The notes beneath the pieces were generated by a model. It did no database searches. It was not told the origin of the DNA and was given only the letters and a program-made list of their open reading frames with translations. The translations under genes were made by a program, and so were the position numbers. Shown here one piece after another: positions 3,368 through 23,227 of a stretch of DNA of 64,000 nt. Numbering within the stretch: the first letter of the stretch is position 1; each line of letters opens with the position of its first letter. Source of the DNA: Acidimicrobiia bacterium (GTDB taxonomy: Bacteria; Actinomycetota; Acidimicrobiia; IMCC26256; JAENVU01). The DNA lies in the NCBI GenBank assembly GCA_046598395.1, contig JBKJIQ010000047.1, positions 81,434-145,433 of the forward strand, read 5' to 3'.

Positions 3368-3405
3368 GACGGGGACTCCCAAAGCTGGTGGACGACGGCG
3401 CAGAA

Positions 3406-3424
3406 ATCTAACGCCTCGTCAGGT
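3406..3424. promoter_or_regulatory. candidate operator, site 1 of a shared inverted-repeat box (ATCTAACGCCTCGTCAGGT)
   Basis: Lies in the 80-bp divergent intergenic region between starts 3367 (-) and 3448 (+). It matches the sites at 14286 and 23209 at 15/19 and 14/19 positions, with identical arm spacing. Confidence 0.45.
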
Positions 3425-3447
3425 CCGGCTCGTAGAGTCAAGAAATC

Positions 3448-4959
3448 ATGGTTGCATCCGCCCACACCGCGGCGCTCTTGCGCGTCGCCGCCGCCACCCA
3501 TCCCGACCGCGACGCCTACGTCCACAACAACAAGCGAGCCACCTACGCCTGGCTCGACCGGGTGGCCGACGGGTTCGCCACGACGTTGATCGGACTCGGA
3601 GTGCAACCCGGCGATGTGGTGGCCCTGATGCTGCCCTCCTCCATCAAGTTCGCAGCGTGCTACCTGGGCGCCCTCCGGGCCGGCGCGATTACCTCGGCCA
3701 TCAACGGTCGACTCGGCGAGAACGAGCAACGCAGCATCCTGGACCGCACCACCCCTGCGGTCACCGTGGTGGGAGACGGTGCCACGCCCCCCGACGGCGC
3801 GCCGATCGGCCAGGTCATCCGAGTCGAAGACCTCAAGGATGCGTTCGGCACGACGCCCACGGCCACGTTTCCGGACCTCACCATGACCGACGCGGCGTGC
3901 ATTGTTTGGACCAGCGGCACCACCGGGATCCCGAAGGGCGCGGTCTACGACCATGCACGCATGCGCGCCATCAGCGACAACATCGGCCAACTCACCGAAC
4001 CCGGCGATCGCCGGTTGGTCGTGCTCCCTTTTCCTCACGTGGGGTACATGACCCGCATGTGGGACGAACTCGCGAACGGCACCACGGTCGTGATCGCGAG
4101 TGAACCGTGGTCGGCCGCCGAGACGTTGCGGCTCATACGCGACGAACACATCACGATGGGAACCGGAGTTCCCACCCAATGGGAACTTGTCCTCTCCCAC
4201 CCGGACATCGCGGCCACAGATTTCTCGGGGCTGCGGGTGGTGGGAACCGGCGGCGCCACGATCGCTCCGGACTTGATTCGTCGGATGCGAGAGACGTTGC
4301 GATGTCCGGTCATCACCCGATACACGAGTACCGAGGCCGGCGTGACCACCAGCACCCTCGTTGGTGATCCCGACGACGTCATTGCGACCACCGTCGGCCG
4401 GCCCGCGCCGGATGTGGAACTGCGCATACTACCGATCGACGGCGACGTTCACGGAGGTGACGTTCACGGGCGCGTCGGCGATGTGGGCGAGATCCTGTCC
4501 CGGTCGCCCGCCATGATGCGGGAGTACTGGTGCGACCCCGTCACGACCGCGGCCACCATCGACGCCGACGGCTGGCTCCACACCGGAGACTTGGGCGTGA
4601 TCGGCGACGACGGCAACCTGCGAATCGTGGGTCGGCTCAAGGAGATGTACATCCGCGGCGGCTACAACGTGTATCCCTCCGAAGTGGAGGCAACGCTCGG
4701 AACTCACCCGGAGGTGGCACAGGTCGCGGTGATCGGAATGCCCGAACCGGTGCTCGGCGAGATCGGAGTGGCGTTCGTCGTCGCCACCGACGCTCAGGAC
4801 CCGCCTGATCTCACCACCCTGCGAGACTGGTGCCGGTCTCGTATTGCCGACTACAAGGCACCGGACAAACTCATCACGGTCGAGGCGTTGCCACTCAACG
4901 CCACCAACAAGGTCGACAAAGCCAGCCTCGCAACCACCTACGCGTCAACGCGGGCATAG
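3448..4959 (+). CDS. AMP-dependent acyl-CoA synthetase/ligase
   Basis: 503 aa with an ATG start. Carries WTSGTTGIPKGAVYDH, TGDLG, and C-terminal LNATNKVDK. Confidence 0.92.
   Translation: MVASAHTAALLRVAAATHPDRDAYVHNNKRATYAWLDRVADGFATTLIGLGVQPGDVVALMLPSSIKFAACYLGALRAGAITSAINGRLGENEQRSILDRTTPAVTVVGDGATPPDGAPIGQVIRVEDLKDAFGTTPTATFPDLTMTDAACIVWTSGTTGIPKGAVYDHARMRAISDNIGQLTEPGDRRLVVLPFPHVGYMTRMWDELANGTTVVIASEPWSAAETLRLIRDEHITMGTGVPTQWELVLSHPDIAATDFSGLRVVGTGGATIAPDLIRRMRETLRCPVITRYTSTEAGVTTSTLVGDPDDVIATTVGRPAPDVELRILPIDGDVHGGDVHGRVGDVGEILSRSPAMMREYWCDPVTTAATIDADGWLHTGDLGVIGDDGNLRIVGRLKEMYIRGGYNVYPSEVEATLGTHPEVAQVAVIGMPEPVLGEIGVAFVVATDAQDPPDLTTLRDWCRSRIADYKAPDKLITVEALPLNATNKVDKASLATTYASTRA
4441..4470 (+). 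repeat. in-frame 15-bp tandem duplication inside the ligase gene (GDVHG-GDVHG)
   Basis: ggcgacgttcacgga is directly followed by ggtgacgttcacggg (13/15 identical). The translation is DGDVHGGDVHG. Confidence 0.8.
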
Positions 4960-4995
4960 CGCGCGCAGCTGCCGCCGAAACAAAAGGACATCGAT

Positions 4996-5802
4996 ATGGC
5001 CATTCAAGAAGTGGGCTCGGGCGATACCCGCGTCAAGCCGATCAAGCTGGGCGGCGCACTCGTCACCATCGTGGAACCACACCGGGGCCACGAGGTCGAC
5101 TACAACCGCTGGTACGAGCGCGACCACTTCTACTCGGGCTGCATGATCGGCGCCTGGACCATCAGCGGTACCCGTTACGTTGCAACCCGTGCCCACAAGA
5201 ACGTGCGGTTCCCCGCGATTTCTGATGGCATTGCGCCGGTTGCGTCACCCTTGGATCAAGGTTCCTACGTCGCGATCTACTGGGTCCTCGCGGGCAAGTT
5301 CGGCGAATGGATTCGGTGGGGCACCGACCAGGTCAACTGGCTGCACGAGAACGAGCGGATGTTCTCCCATCGCGATCATGTGCACACCGCGATGTACAAG
5401 CTGCGTGGGGAGTCACACGCCGATGCCGACGGCGTTCCCGTGGAACTCGCGCTCGACCGCGGCTACCCCGGTCTCGTGATCATGATGGCCGAACCGCCCG
5501 AAGGTTCGGATGGCGCCTGGCTCACCGACTGGGTTTCGCAACGTTCGTCGGCGCCCGCCGATCAAGTGGTTGCACTCACGAGCGTTCCGCTCCTCGCCGA
5601 TGCCCCACCCGACGTTCCCCTCACCCCCGAGACCGAGCGCGTGTGCTTGCTCTGGTTCGACGAGCAGGATCCGCTGGATCGCTGGGACGGGTATCAAAAG
5701 ATCGCAGCCGACCTCGAAGCTGCCGGCGGACGCGTGGTGTTCGCGGCGCCGTTCATCAAGACGGTCCCCGGCACCGATACCTATACCGATCAGCTTTGGT
5801 AG
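4996..5802 (+). CDS. conserved hypothetical protein (no family I can name with confidence)
   Basis: 268-aa ORF whose ATG is preceded by AAGGA, starting 36 nt after the ligase stop. The translation is globular-looking (VTIVEPHRGHEVDYNRWYERDHF...), unlike the Arg/Pro-rich shadow ORFs. Confidence 0.7.
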   Translation: MAIQEVGSGDTRVKPIKLGGALVTIVEPHRGHEVDYNRWYERDHFYSGCMIGAWTISGTRYVATRAHKNVRFPAISDGIAPVASPLDQGSYVAIYWVLAGKFGEWIRWGTDQVNWLHENERMFSHRDHVHTAMYKLRGESHADADGVPVELALDRGYPGLVIMMAEPPEGSDGAWLTDWVSQRSSAPADQVVALTSVPLLADAPPDVPLTPETERVCLLWFDEQDPLDRWDGYQKIAADLEAAGGRVVFAAPFIKTVPGTDTYTDQLW

Positions 5803-5810
5803 CCGGTCCG

Positions 5811-6170
5811 GTGCCACCGAACTCCGACGAACACGACCAGGGAATCGAACCCGACGTTCGCTTCACCTACGCGAACGAGCGAACGTTCCTCGCGTGGAAT
5901 CGCACCGCGCTTGCGCTCATCGCAACCGGGGTTGCGGCAACCCAGCTCCTACCAAAGTTCGGTGTTGACTTCGGCCGCCGAATCCTCGGCCTGCCACTGA
6001 TCGCACTGGGCGCGGTCCTGGCAGTCACCAGCTACCAGTACTGGCAACGCAACCAACGGGCGATGCGTCGATCAGAGCCACTTCCGCGATCGCCGATGCC
6101 GCTGATCCTCTCGATCGGCATCGGTGGAGTGGCAGTCATTGCCGTGGTGCTGGGCCTGTTCGGCAACTGA
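5811..6170 (+). CDS. DUF202 (YidH-like) membrane protein
   Basis: ANERTFLAWNRTALALIATG motif followed by hydrophobic helices. I chose the GTG at 5811 because the rest of track ORF 5307..6170 overlaps the previous gene in another frame. Confidence 0.7.
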   Translation: MPPNSDEHDQGIEPDVRFTYANERTFLAWNRTALALIATGVAATQLLPKFGVDFGRRILGLPLIALGAVLAVTSYQYWQRNQRAMRRSEPLPRSPMPLILSIGIGGVAVIAVVLGLFGN

Positions 6171-6502
6171 TGGCGTCTCCCATCGAGCCCGGCGACGACG
6201 GTCTCTCCCCCGAGCGCACCGTGATGGCGTGGAACCGGTCCGGGATTGCATTTCTCGTGGCCATCGCCGCGCTCGGCCGACGACTCTGGCCGCTCGATCG
6301 GGGGAACCATCGGATCGTGCTCATCACTGTTGGCATCGCCGCGATGGCTTTCCTCGGGAGCCTCTGGAACGCATCGCGCCTTCGCACCCATTCGCGCTAC
6401 GGCGGCGAGACACTCGACCCCCACGCGTTTCGGCTGGTGAGCGGGGGAACGTTGGTACTGGCGGTCGCCGGGTTTGCCCTCGCGCTCTTCCCGGCGACCT
6501 AG
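6170..6502 (+). CDS. DUF202-like small membrane protein (YidG-like partner)
   Basis: 110 aa. TGATG stop/start overlap with the previous gene. ERTVMAWNRSGIAFLVAI motif plus three hydrophobic segments. Confidence 0.7.
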   Translation: MASPIEPGDDGLSPERTVMAWNRSGIAFLVAIAALGRRLWPLDRGNHRIVLITVGIAAMAFLGSLWNASRLRTHSRYGGETLDPHAFRLVSGGTLVLAVAGFALALFPAT

Positions 6503-7503
6503 CGGCCGCTCGGGTCCTCCGGCCGCAGCCGCGGCAGTACCGCGGCCGCGAAGAGCTCCAAGCTTTCCCAGGCCAAATGCGGCGGCAGTCCACCCGCGAG
6601 TGGGTTGAACGTCAGCGCACCGCCCGGTACCACCGCACCGGCGGCCGCGACCACTTCGTCGGGCGTTCCCACCAAAACCTGGGGCGACGCCTTGAGTTCA
6701 TCGATCGAGTTCGCGGACACCATCGGCACCGAGTGCTGGCCACCGGTCTGGATGCGCGCGTAGGTCTGTGCCTCGTGCAACACGTAGGGACCGATCTCGG
6801 ACCAGGTCTTTTCGGGGTCTTCGGTCACATGGATGAACGTCGGGCCCGACGGCTTCATCACGTAGCCGCCCTCGAAACCGACCTGCTCCGCTTCGTCGGC
6901 GTACCACTCGGCCAAGCGAGGATCGGAGTTCATGGGCAGCATCGGCAACCGCAATCGCGCCGCACGACGCGCCGCGGCTTCCACCCCACCCCCCACGAGG
7001 AGCGGTGGATGCGGATCGGTGAAGCCTCGAGGCGTCACCTGCACGGTTCTTCCTTCGTAGGTGAACTCCTCACCCGTGAACGCCTGCAACATCACCTCGA
7101 TGTGCGATTCGAGAATGGCACCGCGCCGTTTGATCTCTACGTCGGCCATCGCAAACTCTTCCGGTCGGTAGCCCGCCCCCACCACGGTCCAGACCCGCCC
7201 TCGAGCGATGTGATCCAGCACCACCAACTGCTCGGCGATCCGGATCGGATCATGCAACGGGAGGACCACCGCCGACAGCAGGATCGGCAGACGCTTCGTG
7301 GCACCCACGATCGCGGCGGCAGCCGTGATCGGAGCCGGCATCCACCCGTCTTCGAATCCGTGGTGTTCCGACACCACTCCGAAGTCGAAGCCGTGCTCAT
7401 CGGCGAAGCGAAACTGCTCGAGCGCGGCGGAGTAGATCTCGGCTTGAGTACTGGATCCGTCGACCGGAGCCCGGAAGTCGTGGCGCATGGTCAAGAAAGG
7501 CAT
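6499..7503 (-). CDS. LLM-class (luciferase-like) flavin/F420-dependent oxidoreductase
   Basis: I use the internal ATG at 7503 (MPFLTMRHDF...). Motifs: FGVVSEHHG and LDHIARGRVWTVVGAGYR. The upstream part of the track ORF overlaps the next gene. Confidence 0.85.
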   Translation of the reverse strand: MPFLTMRHDFRAPVDGSSTQAEIYSAALEQFRFADEHGFDFGVVSEHHGFEDGWMPAPITAAAAIVGATKRLPILLSAVVLPLHDPIRIAEQLVVLDHIARGRVWTVVGAGYRPEEFAMADVEIKRRGAILESHIEVMLQAFTGEEFTYEGRTVQVTPRGFTDPHPPLLVGGGVEAAARRAARLRLPMLPMNSDPRLAEWYADEAEQVGFEGGYVMKPSGPTFIHVTEDPEKTWSEIGPYVLHEAQTYARIQTGGQHSVPMVSANSIDELKASPQVLVGTPDEVVAAAGAVVPGGALTFNPLAGGLPPHLAWESLELFAAAVLPRLRPEDPSGR

Positions 7504-7514
7504 GTTCGCTCCGT

Positions 7515-8450
7515 TCAGCGGGTGAGGTCCGGGCCGACCTCGGCGCCAAAGCGCGCCATCTGGTCGCACAACTCGTCGAGAGAGCGGGCCGCGAACCGCA
7601 GTTGGAGGTGCGACACACCCATCGCGCCGTATTCGTTCAGTGAACTCGCGATCTTGGCCGGCGATCCGGTCAACGCATACTTGGGCGTCTCCCACTCGGG
7701 GTCACCGACGTAGATGTGTTCGGTGATCATGCCGATGTCGAACGTGGCACCGGGCCGCAACTCGTCGCGCTGCGCGTGGAGATAGTCGATCGACTCCGGC
7801 ATGAGCTTGCGCGGCGTTCCTTGGGGAATCCAGCCGTCGCCGCGAGCGGCAACGCGCCGCAACGCAGGCTTCGACGATCCGCCGATCCATACCGGCGGCC
7901 GGGGCTGCTGCACGGGTCGCGGCGCCAGACCCACATCGCCCACGTATTCGTCCAACCACGCTGCCACGATCCCATCGACCGCCGCGTCCGTGAGCGCGCC
8001 CCGGTCCTTGAACGAGACCCCGAGTGCATCGAACTCGCCTTCAACGTGGCCGGCCCCCACCCCCAGAATGACCCGGCCGCCCGAAAGTTTGTCGAGCGTG
8101 GCGAAGGCTTTGGCGGTCTCGAGCGGGTGGCGATATGCCGCAACGAACACGTTGGTCATCAAGCGGACGCGCTCGGTCTGGCCGGCCAGCCAACCGAGCG
8201 TGGCCACCGGGTGGTACCAGGTGGTCGACATCATCTCGGCCTTCTCACGAGGGATGGCGATGTGATCACAGATCGCCACGTAGAAGAAGCCCGCCCGATC
8301 GGCAGCCTGCGCGGCGGCGAGCAACTCGGCCGGCCCCGCACCCTCGCGTTCCCAGGGCATCGATGTGTTCACCGAGAGCGCCTGGACCGGCAGTTGGATG
8401 CCGTAGACGAGCCGACCTTCCGGTACGACGGACACGGTGGTGTGGGTCAC
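7515..8450 (-). CDS. LLM-class F420/flavin-dependent oxidoreductase
   Basis: The GTG at 8450 forms a GTGA overlap with the upstream gene's stop. Motifs: YVAICDHIAIP and LDKLSGGRVILGVGAGH. Confidence 0.85.
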   Translation of the reverse strand: MTHTTVSVVPEGRLVYGIQLPVQALSVNTSMPWEREGAGPAELLAAAQAADRAGFFYVAICDHIAIPREKAEMMSTTWYHPVATLGWLAGQTERVRLMTNVFVAAYRHPLETAKAFATLDKLSGGRVILGVGAGHVEGEFDALGVSFKDRGALTDAAVDGIVAAWLDEYVGDVGLAPRPVQQPRPPVWIGGSSKPALRRVAARGDGWIPQGTPRKLMPESIDYLHAQRDELRPGATFDIGMITEHIYVGDPEWETPKYALTGSPAKIASSLNEYGAMGVSHLQLRFAARSLDELCDQMARFGAEVGPDLTR

Positions 8451-9574: not shown

Positions 9575-9626
9575 CCTTATTTGCCTTCTCTCTTTGCGGC
9601 GCGACGGGCGGTGCCGCTTGGGGCGA

Positions 9627-11087: not shown

Positions 11088-11165
11088 TCGCTTGTCCCCC
11101 GACTCGATTGCGTGAACCGATATTAGAACCTGTTCTCATTCCCCGCCTACCCATACAGTGACGCC

Positions 11166-12044
11166 ATGGAACTGAGCCGAGTTGGTCTTTGGACGCATGC
11201 GTTGGATGGGCTCCCCGCCGGACAGGCCGGGGAGGTCGCGGCGGAGATCGAGGAACTCGGTTACGGCGCACTGTGGCTCCCGGAGATGGCCGGGCGCGAC
11301 CCACTCGTTGCGGCGTCGTTGTACCTCGGGGCCACATCCAGGCTCGTGGTCGCCACCGGTATCGCCAACATCTACGGCCGAGACGCGCTGGCCATGGCGT
11401 GCGGTCACAAAGCGCTCACGGAGGCCTACCCCGATCGATTCCTGCTGGGGCTCGGCGTGAGTCATGCGCCCGCGGTTGAAGGACTCCGCGGTCACACGTA
11501 TGGCCCGCCGCTCACCATGATGCGCGAATACCTCGATGCCATGGATCGCGCCCCGTACTTCGCGGCCGCGCCGAGCACCGAGCCCACACGCGTGCTCGCC
11601 GCCCTCGGACCGAAGATGCTGGAACTCGCGGCGCAGCGAGCGGCCGGCGCGCATCCGTACTTCGTTCCGGTCGAGCACACGGCGTACGCCCGCGAGCATC
11701 TCGGACCCGATGCACTCCTCGCGCCGGAGCAGATGGTGGTACTCGAGACCGACCCGGACACGGCCCGGACCATCGCCCGGCGCGCGATGAAGACCTACCT
11801 CGCGCTCCCGAACTACACGAACAACCTGCGCCGGTTGGGATGGGGTGATCACGACCTCGAGCACGGCGGGTCCGACAAGCTGGTCGACGCGATCGTGGTG
11901 TGGGGTGACGAGTCGGCCATCAAAGACCGGGTCGAAGCACATCACCGCGCCGGCGCGGACCATGTGTGCATTCAGGTGCTCGCCGAAGACTTCTTCGGAG
12001 TCCCGAGCGCGCAGTGGCGCACGCTCGCAGACGCACTCCTCTAG
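11166..12044 (+). CDS. LLM-class F420/flavin-dependent oxidoreductase
   Basis: 292 aa with an ATG start. Motifs: LWLPEMAGRDP and DRFLLGLGVSH. Confidence 0.88.
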   Translation: MELSRVGLWTHALDGLPAGQAGEVAAEIEELGYGALWLPEMAGRDPLVAASLYLGATSRLVVATGIANIYGRDALAMACGHKALTEAYPDRFLLGLGVSHAPAVEGLRGHTYGPPLTMMREYLDAMDRAPYFAAAPSTEPTRVLAALGPKMLELAAQRAAGAHPYFVPVEHTAYAREHLGPDALLAPEQMVVLETDPDTARTIARRAMKTYLALPNYTNNLRRLGWGDHDLEHGGSDKLVDAIVVWGDESAIKDRVEAHHRAGADHVCIQVLAEDFFGVPSAQWRTLADALL

Positions 12045-12070
12045 CGCTAGCGCCGTCGTGACAGAAGTCC

Positions 12071-12958
12071 TCAGGTGGTCGAAGCGGCGAAGATGCTGCC
12101 GATCGACGCGTCGAGCATGGCGTCGAACTCGGCGGTCGATTGCTGCGCCGACAGACCCTCGGTGAGCGCCCGCGAGAAGCTGGCGATGACGCCGGTGTTG
12201 CGAGCCAAGCGCGCGTTGGCAACGTCGCGGGAGTAACCCCCGGACAGCGCCACCACCTTCAGCACGCGTGGGTGGTCCACGAGCTCGGCGTAGAAGTTGT
12301 CCGTCTCCGGCAAGGTGAGCTTGAGCATCACCTGCTGGTCATCACCGAGGGTGCCCACCTGCGCAAGGATCGCGGCTTTCAACAGGTCCTCGGCGGCGGC
12401 CTTCTCCGGGCTGTGAATATCGATCTCGGGCTCAATAATCGGAACCAGTCCGGCCGCGATGATCTGGCGGCCGACATCGAACTGTTGATCCACCACGGCA
12501 CTTACGCCCGCGGCGTTCGCCAGCTTGATCACGGAACGCATCTTGGTGCCGAACACTCCCTTTTCGAGCGCGTGGGCGAGGAGCGCATCGAGGTCCGACA
12601 TCGGCTTCATGATCTGCGCGCCGTCGACCTCGTCGGCCAGACCTTTGTCGACCTTGAGGAACGGGACGACCTTCTTGTTGGACCACAGGAACTCCGCGGT
12701 CCCCACGCCGTCGATATGACGGTCCATCGTGCCCTCGAAGAGAATCGCACCCAACACTCGGTCGCCGTTGAAGCTCGGACTCGTGATGATCCGGCTCCGC
12801 ATCTCGTGCATCTTGGTGAACATCTCTTCGTCACCGGAGTACTCACTCTCCTCCACGCCGTAGAGCGCGAGGGCCTTCGGAGTGCTTCCACCGCTTTGGT
12901 CGAGCGCGGCGATGAATCCCGGACGGGTCGCGATGGCGTTCCGCTGGTCACTGTTCAT
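12071..12958 (-). CDS. class I fructose-bisphosphate aldolase
   Basis: GFIAALDQSGGSTPKALALYG is the recognisable class I FBA N-terminal block. I chose the ATG at 12958 (MNSDQRN...), which has GAGGA upstream. The track ORF extends to 12982. Confidence 0.88.
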   Translation of the reverse strand: MNSDQRNAIATRPGFIAALDQSGGSTPKALALYGVEESEYSGDEEMFTKMHEMRSRIITSPSFNGDRVLGAILFEGTMDRHIDGVGTAEFLWSNKKVVPFLKVDKGLADEVDGAQIMKPMSDLDALLAHALEKGVFGTKMRSVIKLANAAGVSAVVDQQFDVGRQIIAAGLVPIIEPEIDIHSPEKAAAEDLLKAAILAQVGTLGDDQQVMLKLTLPETDNFYAELVDHPRVLKVVALSGGYSRDVANARLARNTGVIASFSRALTEGLSAQQSTAEFDAMLDASIGSIFAASTT

Positions 12959-13054
12959 GATCGAAGTCCTCATGGTTGGCACGGCTCATCAAGGCCGCCG
13001 CGTGGGTGGAGCGTCGGTGATCGGAGAAAAGAGTAGGTGCTGGCCCATCGCCGG

Positions 13055-14272
13055 TTACGCGTCGAGGTCGAGGCGCAACATTCGAATGGCGTTCGTGCGC
13101 ACGATCTGCACGATGCTGGCGTCGTCGAGGTCGGCCATGATGTCCATGGCCACCTTGCGGGAGTGCGGCCAGGTGGAGTCGGAGTGGGGGTAGTCGGTTT
13201 CGAAGGTGACGGTCTCCACGCCAATCTCATCCAGTGATTTCAAGCCATGGGGATCGTCGAAGAAGCACCCGAAGACGTGCTCGCGGTAGGCCTGGCTCGG
13301 CGGCACCTTCACCGTGTCGGCCACACCGCCCCACCCGCGATTCTCGGCCCACACCTTGTCGGCCCGATCCAAGACGTACGGGATCCAACCGATCTGGCCT
13401 TCGGAGAACGCGAGCTGCAGATCCGGAATGCGTTCCAACACGCCGGACATCAGATAGTCGGTGAGCGACATCGCCGCGTTCATGTAGGTGAGGGTGGAGC
13501 TGACCGCCGGTGGTGCATCGGCGGACGTCGACGGCATCTTGGAACTCGAGCCGATGTGCATCGACACCACGGTCTCGGTCTCGGCACACGCCGTGAAGAA
13601 TGGGTCCCAGTAGTGATCCGGGTCGTGAATCGACGGCAACCCGAGGAACGGTGGGATCTCGCTGAAGCAGACTGCATGGGCGCCGCGCGCCGCGTTGCGA
13701 CGTACCTCATCGGCGGCCAACTGTGCGTCCCACAGCTGGATGATCGGCAACGGAATGAGGCGACCACCAGAACCCGCACACCACTCGTCGAACTGCCAAT
13801 CGTTGTACGCCTTCACGCAGAGGTCGGCGAGTTCCTTGTCTTCGCGCTCGAGGAACGTCTGGCCGCAGAACCGCGGGAACGTGGGGAAGGACAGCGACGC
13901 CTCGACCCAGTTGGTGTCCATATCGATGAGCCGCTCCACCGGATTCCAGCAGCCGGGGCGCATGTCCTCCATAGTGATGGGACTCACTGTGATCTCCTCG
14001 CGCGGGACTCCCGCCGCGGCCATCACCCGGGTGAGCGGGTACCGAAGGTCCTCGATGTCCCACCAGTCGCACCAGGTGCCATCTTCACCCGGATCGGATT
14101 CGCGGTAGCTGAAGACGCCGCCCACGAAGTTCATCTCCGCCACCTTGCGCCGATGCATGGTGGGGCCGATTTCCCGGAACTTCTCCGGCAGGCGATCCAC
14201 CCATACGTTGGCGGGTTCCATCACGTGATCGTCGACGGAAATGATCTTCGGGAACTCTTCCGGGCTGAACAT
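13055..14272 (-). CDS. amidohydrolase-2 family metal-dependent hydrolase/decarboxylase
   Basis: 405 aa. The N-terminal ISVDDHVMEP and overall pattern are typical of the ACMSD-like amidohydrolase_2 family. Confidence 0.85.
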   Translation of the reverse strand: MFSPEEFPKIISVDDHVMEPANVWVDRLPEKFREIGPTMHRRKVAEMNFVGGVFSYRESDPGEDGTWCDWWDIEDLRYPLTRVMAAAGVPREEITVSPITMEDMRPGCWNPVERLIDMDTNWVEASLSFPTFPRFCGQTFLEREDKELADLCVKAYNDWQFDEWCAGSGGRLIPLPIIQLWDAQLAADEVRRNAARGAHAVCFSEIPPFLGLPSIHDPDHYWDPFFTACAETETVVSMHIGSSSKMPSTSADAPPAVSSTLTYMNAAMSLTDYLMSGVLERIPDLQLAFSEGQIGWIPYVLDRADKVWAENRGWGGVADTVKVPPSQAYREHVFGCFFDDPHGLKSLDEIGVETVTFETDYPHSDSTWPHSRKVAMDIMADLDDASIVQIVRTNAIRMLRLDLDA

Positions 14273-14285
14273 GGCGCCACGTTAC

Positions 14286-14304
14286 ATCTGACGACCCGTC
14301 AGAT
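14286..14304. promoter_or_regulatory. candidate operator, site 2 of the shared box; perfect palindrome ATCTGACG-ACC-CGTCAGAT
   Basis: Perfect 8-bp arms with a 3-bp spacer. It lies 14 nt upstream of the amidohydrolase start (14272) and 52 nt upstream of the MFS start (14356). An extra CTGACG half-site sits at 14308..14313. Confidence 0.55.
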
Positions 14305-14355
14305 CCGCTGACGCAGGGCCTTCAGTTCGGTCGACGGTGGTTCGATAGCTGAACC

Positions 14356-15747
14356 GTGAGCAATGGTTCGGGGACCTCCGTAGGACGCGTGGCGTTTCTG
14401 GCTGGGCTCGGCGGCGCGCTCTTCGGCTACGACACCGGCGTCATCGGCGGAGCCCAGCTTTTCATCCAGAAGGACTTCCACCTGTCGTCGTTGTCCGACG
14501 AGGTCCTCGTGGCCTGTGTTCTCATCGGCGCGATTTTCGGGTCTCTGATCGCCGGCAGCCTGGTGACCCGCATCGGTCGCCGGCACACGATTGGCGTCTC
14601 CGCGCTGCTGTTCATCGTTGGATCCGTCGCCGCGGCGGGCAGCCCGAATGCATCCTTTCTCGACGCCGCGCGCATTGTGGTGGGGATCGCGATCGGCATC
14701 GTCTCCGTGGCGGCGCCGCTCTACATTGCCGAGGTCGCACCCGCGGCTCGGCGGGGATCGCTGGTGGCGATCTACCAACTTGCGATCACCATTGGGATTT
14801 TTGCGGCGTACCTCGTGGACGAAGTCTTTGCGCACGACGAGGCCTGGCGCATCATGTTCGCGATCGGCGTGGCGCCCGCGGTCCTCCTCTTGGTGGGTCT
14901 GCGCGGACTCCCCGAATCACCGAGATGGCTCCTGGACCGCGGACGACGCGACGAAGCGGTTGCCGTCCTCGGCATCATGGATGCAAGCCGACCGGCCACG
15001 GAATCTCTCGCCGAAATCGACGAGGCTCGCGCCGGTGAGACAGGGCGCGGCTGGCGGGAACTCGCAGCGACGACCGCGCGTCGAGCACTCATCATCGCGG
15101 TAGGGCTCGCCCTGATCCAGCAACTGACCGGGATCAACACGATCATCTATTACGCACCGCGCATCTTCCAAGATGCCGGCCTCGGGTCCGCCTCCGCTGC
15201 CATCTGGGCTTCGATCACCGTGAGCATCGTGAACGTTGCGTCCACGTTCATTGCGATCCGGTTCGTGGATCGGGTGGGCCGCAAGCCATTGCTGACCATC
15301 GGCCTCATCGGCATGATCGGCGCGCTCCTCGCGCTCACCTTCGCATTCGCGATTGGCGACTCCGGTTCGGGCTTCGGCATCACCAGCGTGATCACCATTG
15401 GTGCGTTGTGGGTCTACGTGGGGTTCTTCGCCTTCTCGCTCGGGCCGATCGTGTGGATCGTCATCTCGGAGATCTTCCCGGCACCGGTGCGCGGACCGGG
15501 AAACGCGCTGGCCACCATGGCGGGTTGGATCGGGAACCTCGTGGTGTCGCTCACGTTCCTCAGCCTCATCGACGCGCTCGGCGAATCCGCCACCTTCGGG
15601 CTCTACGCGGCCGTGGGCATCGGCTCGGTGCTGTTCGTCCGCTCGCGGGTGCCCGAGACCAAGGGTCGCAGCCTCGAAGAGATCCAGAGCGAGCTGTCAG
15701 GACGGCGGTCAGGGGAACAGCCCAGAGTTGTCAGCCTCGTTCCCTGA
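14356..15747 (+). CDS. MFS sugar-porter family transporter
   Basis: 463 aa with a GTG start. Signature blocks: GGALFGYDTGVIGG, PESPRWL and PETKGRSLEEI. Confidence 0.92.
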   Translation: MSNGSGTSVGRVAFLAGLGGALFGYDTGVIGGAQLFIQKDFHLSSLSDEVLVACVLIGAIFGSLIAGSLVTRIGRRHTIGVSALLFIVGSVAAAGSPNASFLDAARIVVGIAIGIVSVAAPLYIAEVAPAARRGSLVAIYQLAITIGIFAAYLVDEVFAHDEAWRIMFAIGVAPAVLLLVGLRGLPESPRWLLDRGRRDEAVAVLGIMDASRPATESLAEIDEARAGETGRGWRELAATTARRALIIAVGLALIQQLTGINTIIYYAPRIFQDAGLGSASAAIWASITVSIVNVASTFIAIRFVDRVGRKPLLTIGLIGMIGALLALTFAFAIGDSGSGFGITSVITIGALWVYVGFFAFSLGPIVWIVISEIFPAPVRGPGNALATMAGWIGNLVVSLTFLSLIDALGESATFGLYAAVGIGSVLFVRSRVPETKGRSLEEIQSELSGRRSGEQPRVVSLVP

Positions 15748-15788
15748 CGACTCCCTCAACCAACCTGGCTTGACGGGAACGAAGATGA

Positions 15789-16388: not shown

Positions 16389-16436
16389 GGACATCTGGGA
16401 CCCCAGATCAAGCCTCAAAGCAGCAGCTTCATCGGC

Positions 16437-17063: not shown

Positions 17064-18736
17064 TCCTCCGCGAACTGCAAATCGGCGTCGTCCATCAACA
17101 CGGCCTTCACGACTTTGCCCGTGGCGTTTCGGGGCAGCGGCTCGGTGCGGAACTCCCAGTGCGTCGGGACCTTGAAATAGGCAAGCGTCTCCGCACAAAA
17201 GGCCGAGAGTTCCTCGGGCGTTGCGGTCATGTCCGGCATCGCCACGATGACCGCCTTGACCTCCTGGCCGAGCGCTTCATGATCCACCGGAATCACGGCA
17301 ACTTCTGCGACCGCAGGATGTGCCTCTAACCGGTTTTCGATCTCGATTGGGTAGATGTTCTCACCGCCGCGCAGGATGAGATCGCGCTTGCGGGTTGCGA
17401 GGTAGAGGCGCCCGCCTTCTATGTGTCCGATGTCGCCGGTTCGAAGCCATCCGCCCGCCAGAATGGTGGCCGCGGTCTCCTCGGGTCTGCCCCAATATCC
17501 CGGCATCACCATGGGACCGCGCAGGAGGATCTCGCCGTCTTCTCCGTCGGGCAGCGCCGCGCCCATCACACCATCGTCGGAGACATCGCGAATCGTCAGC
17601 TGCACCGTCGGCAACGGCCGGCCGGCCGACTCGGGAAAGGCAACCAGTTCATCTCCCGCGTTGATCGTCGCCAACGCGGCGCACTCCGTCTGTCCGTACC
17701 CCACGCCCATGGCCCCGCGCAGGTTCGGGATCGCCTCGCGTGCCTTTTCCAAGAGCGCGGGCGAGAACGCCGAGCCACCGCCACCGCCTTGACGCAACCC
17801 GGTGAGGTCGTACTCCGCCAAGCGAGGGTGATGAATCACTCGGTGCAACATCGTCACCGTGTACGACCAGCCAGTAATCCCCTCGTCCTGAATCAGGCCC
17901 ATCACCACCTCGGGATCGAACCGACCGAGGGTCCACACCGAGCGCGTTCCGGAAATCATGAACGCGATGGCACCCATGTGGAGACCGGAAACGTGGAACA
18001 GCGGGTACGTGACCAACTGACAGACCGGGACTCCGCTCGCCGCTCCCCGCTTGCTCATGGCCATCCGTGCTCCATGAAAGAATGAGATTCCGATGGCGGC
18101 GAGCACGTTGCGATGCGTGTTCACCGCGCCCTTGGGCCGTCCCGTGGTTCCGCTCGTGTAAAGAATCAGTGCAGGGTCGTCCTCGGCAATGGGCTGGGTC
18201 GGCAGTGGCTCATCCGGATAGGCATTCCACGCGCGCTCGAACTCGTCCTCGATCACCAGCGTCGGAACCCCCGGGTCTTCGCCACCGAGACGTTCGAGCC
18301 GTTTGCGGTCGGCGATGAGCAAGGCGGGGTCACAATCCGCGATGCCGTAACGGATTTCGTCACCCACCCACCAACCATTGAGCCCCACCGCGATCGCACC
18401 CAAGCTGATCGTCGCCCAGAACGCCACAATCCATTCGGGGCAGTTCGCCGCGAGAATCGCGACTCGATCGCCGGGACCGACACCGTATTCCTCACGCAGG
18501 ACCCGGGCGACCGACGCCACCGCGCGCTGATGCTCACGGTGGGTGACCACGCGTCGCGTGTCGCGGTCACAGAACACCACGTACTCGCGATCGTCGAAGG
18601 CCTCCGCAGCCACGAGTGCATCCCGAAGGTTGGTAAGGCGGTTGGCAAACACCGTCATCGATTCGCCGCCCACCACTGCGGTCGTCACCTCAAAGAAGCC
18701 GCCCGACGCAGTCAACTGCACTTCGAGCGCGGCCAT
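17060..18736 (-). CDS. AMP-dependent acyl-CoA synthetase/ligase
   Basis: Motifs YTSGTTGRPKGAVNTH and GYGQTE. I chose the ATG at 18736 (MAALEVQL...). The track ORF begins with a TTG at 18808, so the start is uncertain by about 24 codons. Confidence 0.88.
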   Translation of the reverse strand: MAALEVQLTASGGFFEVTTAVVGGESMTVFANRLTNLRDALVAAEAFDDREYVVFCDRDTRRVVTHREHQRAVASVARVLREEYGVGPGDRVAILAANCPEWIVAFWATISLGAIAVGLNGWWVGDEIRYGIADCDPALLIADRKRLERLGGEDPGVPTLVIEDEFERAWNAYPDEPLPTQPIAEDDPALILYTSGTTGRPKGAVNTHRNVLAAIGISFFHGARMAMSKRGAASGVPVCQLVTYPLFHVSGLHMGAIAFMISGTRSVWTLGRFDPEVVMGLIQDEGITGWSYTVTMLHRVIHHPRLAEYDLTGLRQGGGGGSAFSPALLEKAREAIPNLRGAMGVGYGQTECAALATINAGDELVAFPESAGRPLPTVQLTIRDVSDDGVMGAALPDGEDGEILLRGPMVMPGYWGRPEETAATILAGGWLRTGDIGHIEGGRLYLATRKRDLILRGGENIYPIEIENRLEAHPAVAEVAVIPVDHEALGQEVKAVIVAMPDMTATPEELSAFCAETLAYFKVPTHWEFRTEPLPRNATGKVVKAVLMDDADLQFAEE

Positions 18737-18984
18737 GCCATCTGGAATCCCGGCTGCGTCCACCTCGCGGAGGCTAGCCACGCACGGCGAGACCCAACGG
18801 GAGCCCAAGGCTCAGAAAATATTCTCCGCGTGACTAGGAATTCGTCGGCTCATCGTGCACAATGGGTGGGTCCCCGGGAGCAGGCTGCGGGCCACCCTGC
18901 CCGGTCCGCCGGTCGCCCCGGGGGCATTTCATTTTCGCAGCAAAAACCGTCAACTCCTGCGGTCGTTCTGTCGATGTACCCACC

Positions 18985-19821
18985 ATGGTCACCCGGCGCG
19001 TCTCCCCCGTGCTCGTCCTCGTCGCAGGCTTGATCTGCGGGGTGACGGCGGGCGCGGCGTGGGCCGTGTCCTCGACCGCGCGCGACGAGCGCACCATTCT
19101 CAACGAGGCATACAGCATCGCGCGGAGTGAACCGGTTCGCGAGATCTTCGCTCGTCAGATCGCCGAGGCGTTCGTACCGCATTCCGCGGCGAGTTCACCG
19201 GCCGACTTGATCCGTTCGAACGACATCGGCCGCAAGGCGGTGGAATCCCCCGCGTTCCAGCAGGCGTTCGCCACCGCACTCGTGCCGATCTATCAACACT
19301 TGGTGCGCGGAACCACGGGTGACATCGTGCTCGACCCTGCCCTCGTGCAACAGGCAATCGCTTCCACCGGCGCCCAGGCGCCGCCGGACTTCTCGCTACA
19401 GATCGCGAGTGACGACATCCCCGACCTCCGGCCGACCCTCGACTTCATGAAAGCTGTCGCCGGCGCACTCGGCGCACTCGCGGTGCTCCTCATCGGCGTC
19501 GGACTGGGAATCGCGCCCCATCGCGGCCGAGCGGTGATGCGCATTGGGCGCTGGCTCATCACGACCGGTCTGATCACCATCCTCGTGTTCTGGGCGCTCC
19601 CCAACCTCGCACTGCTTCCACTCGGAGGTTGGATCGGGGTCATCGGGATCGTGCTCGCCACCGGAGATTGGCTGGTGGTTCCGGCGTCGGTGCTCACGGC
19701 GTTGGGAATCGTGATCGTCGTCATGGGTCGCGCGGGCGAAGCCGAAGAACGGCGTCGCACACTCTCGGTCATTCCCAGCCGCGTGGGCCGGGTTCCAACC
19801 CGAGCCAGCATCTCGACCTAG
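18985..19821 (+). CDS. hypothetical integral membrane protein
   Basis: The ATG at 18985 gives MVTRRVSPVLVLVAGLICGV... (an N-terminal TM segment). A soluble segment follows, then several C-terminal hydrophobic helices. No family recognised. Confidence 0.65.
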   Translation: MVTRRVSPVLVLVAGLICGVTAGAAWAVSSTARDERTILNEAYSIARSEPVREIFARQIAEAFVPHSAASSPADLIRSNDIGRKAVESPAFQQAFATALVPIYQHLVRGTTGDIVLDPALVQQAIASTGAQAPPDFSLQIASDDIPDLRPTLDFMKAVAGALGALAVLLIGVGLGIAPHRGRAVMRIGRWLITTGLITILVFWALPNLALLPLGGWIGVIGIVLATGDWLVVPASVLTALGIVIVVMGRAGEAEERRRTLSVIPSRVGRVPTRASIST

Positions 19822-19827
19822 CCGGAA

Positions 19828-20895
19828 CTAACCCTCGGTCAGTCCAGCGATCGCGCGATCGCGAACCCCGACGAAGCGCTCGAGCACCTGGTCGGCCCAC
19901 GTTGCGTCATCAGGAGCAAATGCGGCGCGCAGCTGTTCCTTGATGGCCGGCGCCACCGGTCCTTGCGGATCCGAATACCCATGGAGCCAAGCGTCGGCGC
20001 GCAACGCGTCGGACACCGCCACGATGTCGACGGTCCCCCACTCGATCGCCACTCCTGCAACGCCCACCCCCGGCAACCAGGTCTCTATCGCGTCGAGCAC
20101 ATCGCCACGGACGTCGGCCGAAACCGACGTCCCCTCGCTCGGAATCAGGTAGCCGTCGAAGCAGGTATCGAGGCGCGCCTTCCCGGCACGGTCGGGATGA
20201 CTCGCGATGAGTTCGCCGTGACCCCGTTCGCCCAGCCCGGTATGGAGGTCGAGAATTGCGACGCTGCGGGCGCCGGAGAGACGTTCGCGCACAATCCGCT
20301 CCAACGTGTGATGGGACCAGACTCTCGCGTGACCGCCGAAGAAAATTCCGGTCGGATGGTGGTACTGCCCACTGCTCACTGCGGCTTGGAGACCATCGAA
20401 TCCATTGCGACCCGCGAACTCGAGCAACGTTTCCGCGGTCGCCTGTCGGACTTGGTCGTCCCAGACGGCGGGGACCAGGGCGGCGGCAAGTTCGTCGTAG
20501 CCGGGATTGTCGGGGAGCGCATCGTCGAAGTCGATGCCGTTGCGATTGAGGTCCACGTTGTCTTCGTTCACCCGCCGGATCCACGCGAAGCCATACGGGT
20601 TGATCGCGTGAATCATCGTCACGGAAAGATCGCCGGGTAGGGGCACACCGTCGCGGAGCCAACTCGTCTGGCACAGGCTCCCGGCAAAGCCTTCCACGCC
20701 GTGGGTACCGGAGATCAGAAGGAGTCGGTTCGCGGCATCCTGGGCACCGAAGGTGGCGACGTCAGTAGCCAGCGCGGCGCCATCCGGTCCACGTTCTGGA
20801 TGATCGAACGTTGTGATCGCTCCCCCGGCGGCGAGAGCGGCGTCGAGAAACCCCTGACGAGCGTGTGTGAAGTCGGGCGCCAGCCTCACGGGCAT
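19828..20895 (-). CDS. DUF2817 / M14-like zinc carboxypeptidase-fold protein
   Basis: The ATG at 20895 gives MPVRLAPDF.... The LLISGTHGVEGFAGS block is typical of the DUF2817 (succinylglutamate-desuccinylase/aspartoacylase-like) family. Confidence 0.75.
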   Translation of the reverse strand: MPVRLAPDFTHARQGFLDAALAAGGAITTFDHPERGPDGAALATDVATFGAQDAANRLLLISGTHGVEGFAGSLCQTSWLRDGVPLPGDLSVTMIHAINPYGFAWIRRVNEDNVDLNRNGIDFDDALPDNPGYDELAAALVPAVWDDQVRQATAETLLEFAGRNGFDGLQAAVSSGQYHHPTGIFFGGHARVWSHHTLERIVRERLSGARSVAILDLHTGLGERGHGELIASHPDRAGKARLDTCFDGYLIPSEGTSVSADVRGDVLDAIETWLPGVGVAGVAIEWGTVDIVAVSDALRADAWLHGYSDPQGPVAPAIKEQLRAAFAPDDATWADQVLERFVGVRDRAIAGLTEG

Positions 20896-20914
20896 CGACC
20901 GACGACCTTCGGCT

Positions 20915-21424
20915 CTACGACTGGACCGGTTCGCCCGCCGCGGTAACGGCGTACCAAACATCGCCCAACGCGTTGCCGTTCACATCACCCGGCGCCGCGT
21001 CACCCGTGAACGTGTAGAGCAGGTGGCCGTTGTAGCTCACCCATTTCTCGCCGTTCGCCTGCTCAGGCGTGGCCGCCTTCTTCGTGAGCCCCGCACCCAG
21101 CGTGACCGACTCGGTCGCCTTCAGCGGCGGCCAGGCCGCCAGGACCCCGGCGGGGACTTTCGAGGTGGGAGACGTTCCGTCCGGCACGTAGAGATAGAGG
21201 ACCATGCCTTTGGAGTTAGCAACAACCTTCCCGAGTGTGGTGTCGGCGAGTTGCAATGTAGTTTGCCCCGCGGGCGCCGCTGCGGTACTCGAACTCGCCG
21301 ACTTCGACGGCTTCGTGGGAGTTGAGCCATAGACCCCGCCACCTTTGCTACCGCTGCTGCTTCCACACGCGCTCGCGAGCACCGCAACGCCCACTACCGC
21401 TCCGAGCCATTTGCGATTGATCAT
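20915..21424 (-). CDS. secreted-repeat lipoprotein (Lipoprotein_15 / COG4315-like)
   Basis: The ATG at 21424 gives MINRKWLGAVVGVAVLASACGS (lipobox). A Ser/Thr-rich linker follows, then two copies of the G..LY.....D type repeat (KGMVLYLYVPD, NGHLLYTFTGD). AGGAGG lies upstream. Confidence 0.8.
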   Translation of the reverse strand: MINRKWLGAVVGVAVLASACGSSSGSKGGGVYGSTPTKPSKSASSSTAAAPAGQTTLQLADTTLGKVVANSKGMVLYLYVPDGTSPTSKVPAGVLAAWPPLKATESVTLGAGLTKKAATPEQANGEKWVSYNGHLLYTFTGDAAPGDVNGNALGDVWYAVTAAGEPVQS

Positions 21425-21459
21425 GGGTCCTCCTCTGGACCTGGCCATCGTAGGCACGC

Positions 21460-23181
21460 TCAGCGCGTCGACACTGTCGCGGTATCGCGGCCCGACCGCA
21501 GAATCGTTCCCGGCGTAGCGCCGGTCGCGGCATTTGCGGTGACCGTCTCAACTCCATTGACCAACACGTGCTCTATTCCGTACGCGCCCGCGGTCAGCCG
21601 CGCGGAACCACCAGGAAGGTCCGCGACGAGCGTGGCGTGTTCCGATCCGATCGTGGCGGGGTCGAACACCACCAAATCGGCTCGTTGCCCAGTCGCGAGC
21701 ACACCGCGATCTCGAAGCCCGAACAGGCGGGCCGGATCGCTGGTGATCATCTGCACCGCCGATTCCACCGAGACCAGTTGGCGGTCCCGGATCATGTCGC
21801 CCAAGAATCGCGTGGTGTACGGGGCGCCGCACATGCGGTCAAGGTGCGCGCCGGCGTCGGACCCTCCGAGCATTGCGCGCGGGTCCTCCCACACCTCTTT
21901 GCGGAGGTCCCATGACGCGGCGTCGCCGTCGGGTGCAATCGGCCAGAGAATCGTGCGGAGATCATCGGCAACCACGATGTCGATCAACGTCGCGAATGGA
22001 TCCGTCCCGCGTTCCGCGGCCACGGCTTTCACCGTCCGACCTTTGAGCCCCTCATTGGCCGCCGAGTACGTGTCGCCGAGGACGTAGTTCGTCCAATCGG
22101 CGAGACGACGGAACACCCCCGCCTCCTCACTGTTCGCGCGGGCATTCATCCATTCACGAGTCTCGGGGTTCTTGAGCTTCGCTATTCGATCCGCCACCGG
22201 CAAGTTCAACACGTCGCCCCACCCGGGCAGCATGTTGAGTGCGCAGTAACTCAGAAAGCTCATGTTCATGGGCACCAGGACTGGCATGGTCAACGCCACC
22301 ACCCGTCCCCCGAGTTCGCGGGCGCGATCCGCGGCCGAAAGTTGGCGCGGCACGCGTTGGGGTACTCGGGAGTCGACCGTCAAGACGTTCCAGTTCAGGG
22401 GTCGGCCTCCGGCAGCCGACATGCGAGCGAGGAGATCGATCTCGTCATCGTCGAACTGATCGAGACAGCCGTCGATGATTGCTTCGAGCGACGTGCCCTC
22501 ATGGTCGCCGACGGCCGCGCACAACGCGAGCACCTCAGCCTCGCTCGCCCACCGGGACGCGACAGGCTGGCCGTCACCGTCCGAGTGAGTCTTCGACAGC
22601 GTGGTGGAGAAGCCCAGACCACCGGCGTCGATCGCAGTGTGCAACTCGCGCACCATCGCTTCGATCTCGGCGTCGGTGGCTTCCCGACCCACCGCTTCCG
22701 CGCCCATCACGTAGCGCCGCAACGCGCAATGGCCCACAAGGAAGCCCGCGTTCACCGCCACCTTGCCATCGAGTCGGCCCAGATATTGCGCAAAGGTTTC
22801 CCAGTCCCATTCGACGCCGTGTTCCAACGCGGTCAGCGGCATCCCCTCGACCTTGGCCATCATGCGCCGGAGGTAGTCGGCATCCTCCGCGTGCAACGGC
22901 GCGAGCGTAAAGCCGCAGTTGCCGCCGATCACGGTGGTCACCCCGTGCACATTGCTCGGCGACGCGCTGGCATCCCAGAAGAGCTGTGCGTCGTAGTGGG
23001 TGTGCGGATCGACGAACCCCGGCGTCACCATGAGGCCGCCGGCGTCAATCTCGCGCTGCGCACTTCCCTCGACATCACCCACTTCGACGATGAGCCCGTC
23101 CTGTACTGCGACGTCGGCTTGGCGAGCCGAAGCACCCGTACCGTCCACGACCGTCGCGCCCTTCACCACTACGTCGAACAT
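21460..23181 (-). CDS. N-acyl-D-amino-acid deacylase-like amidohydrolase
   Basis: The ATG at 23181 is preceded by GGAGG and gives MFDVVVKGATVVDGTG.... PGFVDPHTHYD is the metal-binding motif. The 222 upstream codons of the track ORF are Arg/Gly-rich and overlap the next gene. Confidence 0.88.
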   Translation of the reverse strand: MFDVVVKGATVVDGTGASARQADVAVQDGLIVEVGDVEGSAQREIDAGGLMVTPGFVDPHTHYDAQLFWDASASPSNVHGVTTVIGGNCGFTLAPLHAEDADYLRRMMAKVEGMPLTALEHGVEWDWETFAQYLGRLDGKVAVNAGFLVGHCALRRYVMGAEAVGREATDAEIEAMVRELHTAIDAGGLGFSTTLSKTHSDGDGQPVASRWASEAEVLALCAAVGDHEGTSLEAIIDGCLDQFDDDEIDLLARMSAAGGRPLNWNVLTVDSRVPQRVPRQLSAADRARELGGRVVALTMPVLVPMNMSFLSYCALNMLPGWGDVLNLPVADRIAKLKNPETREWMNARANSEEAGVFRRLADWTNYVLGDTYSAANEGLKGRTVKAVAAERGTDPFATLIDIVVADDLRTILWPIAPDGDAASWDLRKEVWEDPRAMLGGSDAGAHLDRMCGAPYTTRFLGDMIRDRQLVSVESAVQMITSDPARLFGLRDRGVLATGQRADLVVFDPATIGSEHATLVADLPGGSARLTAGAYGIEHVLVNGVETVTANAATGATPGTILRSGRDTATVSTR

Positions 23182-23208
23182 CACAACCTCCGCGCACTCG
23201 CACCACAG

Positions 23209-23227
23209 ATCTGACGAGTTGTCAGAG
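23209..23227. promoter_or_regulatory. candidate operator, site 3 of the shared box (ATCTGACGAGTTGTCAGAG)
   Basis: Lies 28 nt upstream of the deacylase-like start (23181). It is identical to the 14286 site at 15/19 positions, including ATCTGACGA and GTCAGA, with the same spacing. Confidence 0.45.

Follow-up and report, generated by a model that had tools for sequence, protein, structure and literature searches.

FdmR (Rv0238) of mycobacteria is a TetR-family repressor of fatty-acid degradation that responds to long-chain acyl-CoA (PMC12403877), and Rv0238 is one of the five TetR-family transcriptional regulators (TFTRs) whose conservation extends to all mycobacteria (PMC4482099). In Bacillus and Thermus, the TetR-type FadR is an acyl-CoA-sensing repressor of beta-oxidation operons (PMC5397183). 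Here we describe a 64,000-nucleotide stretch of an uncultured Acidimicrobiia bacterium (GenBank assembly GCA_046598395.1, contig JBKJIQ010000047.1, positions 81,434 to 145,433), hereafter the window, in which a 19-bp inverted-repeat box stands in three promoter regions of a catabolic island. We suggest, with fair confidence, that the box is the operator of a homodimeric repressor of the TetR_C_38 family (PF19352), which would be encoded outside the window and would act on the island and on beta-oxidation-like genes. The mechanism so proposed is that of an ordinary TetR-type repressor system; what is new is this regulon, of a kind already known.

Several features of the proposed system recall TetR and tetO: an N-terminal helix-turn-helix (HTH; PF00440 match) of the homodimer type, an odd-length palindrome with an unspecified center, an operator that would overlap core promoter elements, and putative autoregulatory sites at the regulator gene in many genomes. 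It differs from them in the box, an 8-3-8 palindrome of 19 bp with half-site ATCTGACG, in the C-terminal domain (PF19352), and in its layout: TetR_C_38 genes usually lie away from most targets, and the regulon comprises many operons instead of one divergent gene for efflux. The FadR of Bacillus and Thermus likewise has several promoters with palindromic boxes, but its operator sequence and the family of its C-terminal domain are different. FadR of Escherichia coli, a GntR-family protein that also regulates fatty-acid degradation, has a 17-bp operator, ATCTGGTACGACCAGAT. Its outer bases are superficially like those of the box (ATCTG...CAGAT), whereas half-site spacing, core and protein family differ, and we take the resemblance to be coincidental.

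KstR and KstR2, of the steroid-catabolic regulons of Actinobacteria, are TetR repressors with short palindromic operators (TnnAACnnGTTnnA and AnCAAGnnCTTGnT, respectively) scattered across a large catabolic island with many ligases, acyl-CoA dehydrogenases (ACADs), short-chain dehydrogenases/reductases (SDRs) and ChsH2-like proteins. The box does not fit TnnAACnnGTTnnA. A KstR-like palindrome, TAGAACCTGTTCTC, with one mismatch to TAGAACNNGTTCTA, is present at 11124-11137, in the divergent region between an aldehyde dehydrogenase/luciferase-like monooxygenase operon and a monooxygenase gene at 11166, and a second TetR-type system therefore probably co-exists on the same island.

The three boxes had been noticed in a preliminary description made from the letters alone, whose sequences and coordinates match the window exactly, and whose gene calls and domain assignments next to the boxes are correct by Pfam (Table 1). 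The degenerate pattern given there was derived from the three sites themselves; its zero expectation is thus post hoc, and we used instead the perfect palindrome of box 2, ATCTGACG-N3-CGTCAGAT, as consensus (ATCTGACGNNNCGTCAGAT, validated on independent genomes, with mismatches counted over the 16 arm positions). With up to two mismatches allowed, the window (65% GC) contains three sites against 0.032 expected from dinucleotide-preserving shuffles, and none of 1000 shuffles gave three. At three to four mismatches the counts equal the background, so there is no sign of further weak boxes in the window. Box 1 lies in the divergent promoter region of units 1a and 1b, 38 nt from the SDR start (3367) and 23 nt from the ligase start (3448); box 2 lies between the Amidohydro_2 gene (13 nt to its start, 14272) and a major facilitator superfamily (MFS) gene (51 nt to its start, 14356); and box 3 lies 27 nt upstream of the Amidohydro_3 gene (start 23181). 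The 8-3-8 format (19 bp) fits a dimer, as it belongs to the class of palindromic operators of ~15-20 bp.

That one palindromic box is common to several promoters and is read by a dimeric factor, the central proposal of the preliminary description, is supported by phylogenetic footprinting, the check suggested there: the box is found upstream of orthologues in many genomes. At the loci of the four closest Amidohydro_2 orthologues (L001, L002, L003 and L004; identities, from highest to lowest, of 97, 93, 93 and 87%, with L004 the 97% relative), the box is perfect in three and has one mismatch, at an outermost position, in L003. Each of the four ends 13 nt ahead of the Amidohydro_2 start codon, and their spacers are GAT, ACC, ACC and GGG; GAC is another spacer seen in close relatives. 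L001 and L002 keep the position of the box although the upstream gene differs and the MFS gene is absent, while L003 has the same Amidohydro_2/aldolase-like gene pair as unit 2a, and the MFS orthologue of L004 (90% identical) has the box ~50 nt upstream. In L001 and L002 an 83%-identical D-aminoacylase-like orthologue also has a perfect box, 29 nt ahead of it; both loci keep the gene order of unit 3, and L001 keeps that of unit 1b. More distant D-aminoacylase-like homologues (62-67% identical; L019, L075, L106, L123) have upstream boxes too, and a perfect box stands at the 5' ends of SDR, cyclase, hypothetical and ligase homologues in L062, L082, L090, L040, L012 and L073 (the cyclase homologue in L090 and that of the 268-aa hypothetical protein in L040). 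Beside box 2 we observed an additional half-site, GCTGACGC at 14307-14314, 2 nt past the box on the MFS side, which is only partly kept in L004 (TGTCAAC).

A scan for the perfect 19-mer, in a set with one genome for each prokaryotic species, gave at least 119 stretches. The numbers that follow hold among the matches listed. About 100 are from Actinomycetota, including ~50 metagenome-assembled genomes (MAGs) of Acidimicrobiia and ~35 Streptomyces/Kitasatospora. The actinobacterial contigs hold 103 boxes, whose median distance from the start codon that follows is 25 nt; 77 of them are promoter-proximal and 17 lie deep inside open reading frames (ORFs). The families encoded downstream are recurrent: Amidohydro_2 (18 loci), acyl-CoA dehydrogenase (12), luciferase-like monooxygenase (10), DoxX-like (9; a weak Pfam match, under the curated cut-off), SDR (8), Amidohydro_3 (6), CoA-transferase III (5), AMP-ligase (3) and MFS (2), and thiolase, enoyl-CoA hydratase (ECH) and aldehyde dehydrogenase genes are found there too. 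Each of the three window units thus has genes whose homologues carry the box elsewhere. In Streptomyces (L005, L014) the units are contiguous, in the order SDR, box, luciferase-like monooxygenase, D-aminoacylase-like gene, aldehyde dehydrogenase and, further on, Amidohydro_2. The three window sites were described as dispersed; the Streptomyces arrangement indicates instead that they belong to one conserved island of ~23 kb, which in Streptomyces is a single box-controlled cluster. The regulon as a whole is dispersed, though its three window sites share this island.

Which protein reads the box is suggested by the genes around it. The preliminary description had stated that no regulator is encoded nearby; this stands for the window, where no cognate regulator lies beside any box, but not for other genomes, where TetR_C_38 recurs near boxes. 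TetR_N plus TetR_C_38 is the sole recurring DNA-binding family at box-centered loci, and clustering places TetR_C_38 in L010, L037, L055, L071 and L091, with five boxes around the TetR_C_38 gene in L010, from Actinomadura. A Pfam census took in 150 small proteins encoded within 3 kb of boxes. Of these, four have TetR_N and TetR_C_38, two GerE and two HTH_31; the 25 families listed, which include all with at least two members, contain no GntR, MarR, IclR or LysR.

An independent set of 80 metagenome loci (529 kb), picked by similarity to a TetR_C_38 protein alone, contains 52 boxes at up to two mismatches, where ~0.3 would be expected. The box touches the TetR_C_38 gene in 26 of the 80 loci. 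It lies 15-120 nt upstream of the coding region in 13/72, and just past the stop codon, ahead of the next gene, in 12/78, each with a chance expectation of ~0.001 per such interval. Amidohydro_2 proteins encoded in these loci are at most 72% identical to that of the window. Sixty distinct boxes near TetR genes are at least 94% conserved at half-site positions 3-7 (CTGAC), looser at position 8 and at the outer two positions, and free in the spacer, which gives a near-invariant core CTGAC(G)-N3-(C)GTCAG. On the protein side, the HTH segment AGTSPATFYQYF, with the recognition helix motif TSPATFYQYF, is invariant from Streptomyces to Frankiales-like MAGs. In Streptomyces, TetR_C_38 is a conserved 215-aa protein; at its locus, 20 kb with ACAD, thiolase, ChsH2-like and ECH genes contain six boxes. 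Acidimicrobiia-labelled members with the same recognition helix exist (in a 235-member cluster), and one Acidimicrobiia TetR_C_38 locus has a box between ligase and ACAD genes, 5.5 kb from the regulator. The three boxes are thus real, evolutionarily conserved, located in promoters and associated with TetR_C_38 genes. In the literature searched we found neither a publication on PF19352 nor the motif strings of the box, and no solved structure resembles the C-terminal domain.

Two further observations concern this family and its sites. A variant box, ATCTGACA-CAG-TGTCAG(A/G/C)T, recurs in L158, L178, L181, L189, L199, L203 and L151, 1.6-5.4 kb from TetR_C_38 genes. Its G-to-A and C-to-T changes are symmetric and its spacer is conserved, and it may represent either a low-affinity site that has been conserved or a target that a paralogue binds. 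Among 150 listed relatives matched by the TetR_C_38 profile, ~20 (e.g., P0370, P0374, P0379) have ~350-490 aa, most of them 430-490, and two matched stretches. These appear to be tandem double-TetR proteins, reminiscent of the Mce3R-type architecture.

The position of the boxes relative to the promoters argues for repression. We assigned -10 hexamers by eye, following the actinobacterial pattern TAnnnT (Table 1). The position of TAGAGT places box 1 over the -35 region of the ligase operon. For Amidohydro_2, the spacing fits a leaderless mRNA, and the box would cover the spacer and the -35 region; the arrangement box-G-TAnnnT-N6-ATG is kept among orthologues while the letters of the hexamer vary (L001 TAGGTT, L003 TAGCCT, L004 TAACGT, L060 TAGCCT). 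A second geometry, with the hexamer overlapping the box edge, is found at box 3 (TACTCT) and on the SDR side of box 1 (TAGATT). In distant genomes too the hexamer (TAGAAT, TAATCT, TAGCAT or TACAAT) reaches into the box at its upstream edge, and a leader with a Shine-Dalgarno sequence follows. A protein bound to the box would in all these arrangements cover core elements of the promoter, and this points to a repressor.

Physical binding, repression as the mode of action, the ligand and the occurrence of the regulator gene in this genome are inferred from these sequences, as follows. The operator ATCTGACG-N3-CGTCAGAT would be bound by a homodimeric TetR_C_38 repressor with the helix TSPATFYQYF, its gene lying outside the window. 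On the -10 and -35 elements of leaderless or short-leader promoters, the dimer would block RNA polymerase, so that five transcription units, served by three promoter regions in one catabolic island, would be repressed together. A small ligand at the C-terminal domain of the repressor would lead to joint derepression of all units. Across genomes the box-linked genes encode acyl-CoA dehydrogenases, thiolases, enoyl-CoA hydratases, CoA-transferases, AMP-ligases, SDRs and luciferase-like monooxygenases; because acyl-CoA metabolism dominates, the regulon is probably an acyl-CoA-linked catabolic one, and an acyl-CoA or some intermediate of the pathway is the most likely ligand. This pair of operator and repressor would likewise act on beta-oxidation-like genes and the island in Acidimicrobiia, Streptomyces/Kitasatospora, Actinomadura and Frankiales-like lineages.

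Several points weigh against this proposal. There is no TetR_C_38 gene within the 64-kb window, and none within 8 kb of the box in ~50 Acidimicrobiia-labelled box-centered loci. A divergent TetR_C_38-like protein of Acidimicrobiia (L206; helix MSSATFYQYF) has no box nearby. Adjacency shows no more than an association, and the TetR gene could be a regulon member under the control of another factor. As for the promoters, the -10 elements are by-eye assignments, and a scan for E. coli-type promoters found nothing at the three sites, as expected in an actinobacterium of 65% GC. Within the window, the only HTH protein other than the TetR protein of Table 1 is a DUF480 protein in the 27-64 kb part. 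Two kinds of candidate for a hidden regulator were rejected: the conserved hypothetical protein at 18862-19821, which is hydrophobic, membrane-spanning by sequence, and has no Pfam or NCBIfam match; and the small ORFs of the 27-64 kb part, which have no HTH domain except for the DUF480 protein.

The box might instead be a genuine operator read by a factor of another family (e.g., GntR/FadR-like, MarR or IclR), with TetR_C_38 genes being only frequent members of the regulon. This would agree with the lack of a regulator beside any window box and of a TetR_C_38 gene near boxes in the Acidimicrobiia-labelled loci, and the arms of the box are loosely like the E. coli FadR operator. However, no other DNA-binding family recurs near boxes in the census described above (GerE and HTH_31 with two members each, GntR, MarR and IclR with none among the 25 families), the boxes just upstream of TetR_C_38 genes in 13/72 loci form the classic pattern of autoregulation, and the invariance of the HTH parallels that of the operator core. 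We consider a reader from another family improbable. A PafBC/RecA-NDp-like promoter motif and a GntR/FadR-type site were also considered and dropped, the spacing being inconsistent and no GntR genes lying near boxes.

The TetR protein of the window itself is a very unlikely regulator of the three boxes, even though it is the sole clear regulator there, sits right after a FadD-like ligase as TetR_C_38 genes do in ~20 loci, and has an N-terminal motif (AVDGR..R..TR) in common with TetR_C_38. It has no TetR_C_38 Pfam match, its likeness being confined to the HTH region, and its recognition helix is ISVRSVYVHF, not TSPATFYQYF. Instead of the box, it sits on a perfect 8-3-8 palindrome, GTTGCACG-TTG-CGTGCAAC, which at 25857-25875 overlaps its start and is probably its own operator. 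The preliminary description had tied it to a different palindrome, and this is reinforced by conservation: the orthologue in L003 has GTTGCACA-CGC-TGTGCAAC at the corresponding place (L003 669-687). The ligase-TetR_C_38 pairs of the ~20 metagenome loci are syntenic with the ligase-TetR pair of the window, with ligases 56-64% identical, which suggests that the window TetR is a paralogue replacement in a conserved slot after the ligase. We therefore regard it as a putative paralogue-like repressor with an operator of its own. Its palindrome has the same 8-3-8/ACG-N3-CGT architecture as the box with different outer bases, which parallel its different recognition helix, and the common architecture lends indirect support to the reading of the ATCTGACG box by a TetR protein of that clade.

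Still less probable is that the inverted repeat works at the RNA level, as a hairpin in 5' leaders that affects stability, attenuation or processing. Boxes 2 and 3 do fold into hairpins of 6-8 bp, with z-scores of -1.2 to -4.0, and 13 complementary changes in both arms occur among the variants. But the 60 distinct boxes also show 84 single-arm deviations, 68 of them pair-breaking: what is kept in the arms is their sequence more than their pairing. On the plus strand box 1 does not form the hairpin. In leaderless Amidohydro_2 promoters the probable transcription start lies downstream of the box, and the box serves divergent genes, in both orientations. The whole window has no Rfam match at the gathering threshold, and a terminator scan found no terminator-like T tract at the three sites.

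A dispersed repeat of the repetitive extragenic palindromic (REP) or miniature inverted-repeat transposable element (MITE) kind, or a chance match, might be thought of for a short GC-rich palindrome recurring in intergenic DNA, and a REP-like repeat had been named as a refuting case, but its probability is negligible: the flanks of the three boxes are 24-30% identical outside the 19 bp (random being ~25%), there is a single copy per promoter with no tandem or clustered arrays, the promoter bias (77/103) and the excess over expectation (3 against 0.032) are marked, and the distance to start codons is kept across genera that otherwise differ throughout.

Table 1. Boxes, candidate promoter elements and genes of the window (positions counted from its first letter)
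Feature	Coordinates	Strand	Description
Box 1	3406-3424	.	ATCTAACGCCTCGTCAGGT = ATCTAACG-CCT-CGTCAGGT; 2/16 mismatches to consensus
Box 2	14286-14304	.	ATCTGACGACCCGTCAGAT = ATCTGACG-ACC-CGTCAGAT; perfect 8-3-8 palindrome
Box 3	23209-23227	.	ATCTGACGAGTTGTCAGAG = ATCTGACG-AGT-TGTCAGAG; 2/16 mismatches to consensus
Inferred -10 TAGAGT, ligase operon	3433-3438	+	8 nt after box 1, 9 nt before ATG 3448
Inferred -10 TAGATT, SDR operon	3405-3410	-	overlaps edge of box 1
Inferred -10 TAACGT, Amidohydro_2	14279-14284	-	1 nt after box 2, 6 nt before ATG; leaderless
Inferred -10 TACTCT, D-aminoacylase-like operon	23224-23229	-	overlaps upstream edge of box 3
Unit 1a	63-3367	-	SDR 2561-3367, AMP-ligase 997-2556, cyclase-family protein 63-995 (Pfam)
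Unit 1b	3448-6502	+	AMP-ligase 3448-4959, conserved hypothetical 4996-5802, DUF202 membrane proteins (Pfam)
Unit 2a	12071-14272	-	Amidohydro_2 13055-14272, class I fructose-bisphosphate-aldolase-like 12071-12982 (Pfam, NCBIfam)
Unit 2b	14356-15747	+	MFS Sugar_tr transporter (Pfam)
Unit 3	19828-23181	-	Amidohydro_3/D-aminoacylase-like 21460-23181, Lipoprotein_15 20915-21457, DUF2817 19828-20961 (Pfam)
Window TetR	25869-26483		follows FadD-like AMP-ligase (gene pair 24236-26483)

Two other features of the window may be mentioned. At 18813-18826, an AT-rich imperfect palindrome, AGAAAATATTCT, which may be another operator, occupies the divergent region between the membrane-protein gene at 18862 and an AMP-ligase gene (start 18808, minus strand). 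A ChsH2-type (DUF35) zinc-ribbon/OB-fold protein is encoded at 48100-48516, adjoining a 433-aa ORF (48513-49814); there is no box near this gene, only an isolated half-site at 48619.

The regulon had been labelled amide-catabolic in the preliminary description, since every unit includes a metal-dependent enzyme of the amide-hydrolase type. This label is weak, as it rests on three superfamily names. The box-linked genes across genomes belong mainly to acyl-CoA-type catabolism, together with the two amidohydrolase-fold genes. Characterized members of Amidohydro_2 are mostly decarboxylases, lactonases or hydratases, and the window Amidohydro_2 gene shares its operon with a class I aldolase, opposite a sugar-porter gene. 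Its product has no NCBIfam name and is unusually conserved. A search with it gave 7,907 matches at E <= 1e-30; among environmental homologues, the best 120 show 74-97% identity, have lengths of 400-408 aa in nearly all cases, and come overwhelmingly from Acidimicrobiia MAGs.

By its logic, a TetR_C_38 regulon would be closest to those of FdmR, of KstR and KstR2, and of the TetR-type FadR of Bacillus and Thermus. Papers that cite FdmR identify it as Rv0238 and show no motif for it. Its system appears to work in a similar way: a widely conserved core TetR protein over many operons of acyl-CoA dehydrogenases, thiolases, hydratases and ligases. Genes of this type (ACAD, thiolase, ECH, CoA-transferase and AMP-ligase) do lie downstream of boxes, and the window island adds other enzymes. 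The island genes (Amidohydro_2, luciferase-like monooxygenases, the D-aminoacylase-like gene) are not known to be among the reported FdmR fatty-acid degradation genes. No Mycobacterium genome is among the perfect-box stretches listed (at least 119), which is weak evidence against the box being the FdmR motif, and homology searches and cluster names that might link TetR_C_38 to Rv0238 recovered only Streptomyces, Frankiales-like, Nocardia and Acidimicrobiia names. We tentatively raise the possibility, which we hold with less than even confidence, that a single deeply conserved pair of TetR_C_38 and ATCTGACG-N3-CGTCAGAT governs an uncharacterized catabolic pathway across Actinomycetota, in the abundant uncultured Acidimicrobiia as in Streptomyces, centered on the highly conserved Amidohydro_2 enzyme and otherwise made up of luciferase-like monooxygenases, acyl-CoA ligases, an aldehyde dehydrogenase and a D-aminoacylase-like hydrolase, and that its regulator is not simply the FdmR orthologue.

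An anonymous palindrome has thus become a testable regulon, with a defined operator, a candidate regulator family (PF19352) and targets in common with culturable Streptomyces. This regulon ties genes of the beta-oxidation type to a conserved island with Amidohydro_2, luciferase-like monooxygenases and the D-aminoacylase-like gene. If the hypothesis of an Amidohydro_2-centered pathway is true, then the ligand of the repressor would name its substrate, and the Streptomyces orthologue would be an experimentally tractable handle on a pathway widespread in environmental bacteria. Once the ligand is identified, thousands of genes from the environment would gain an annotation.

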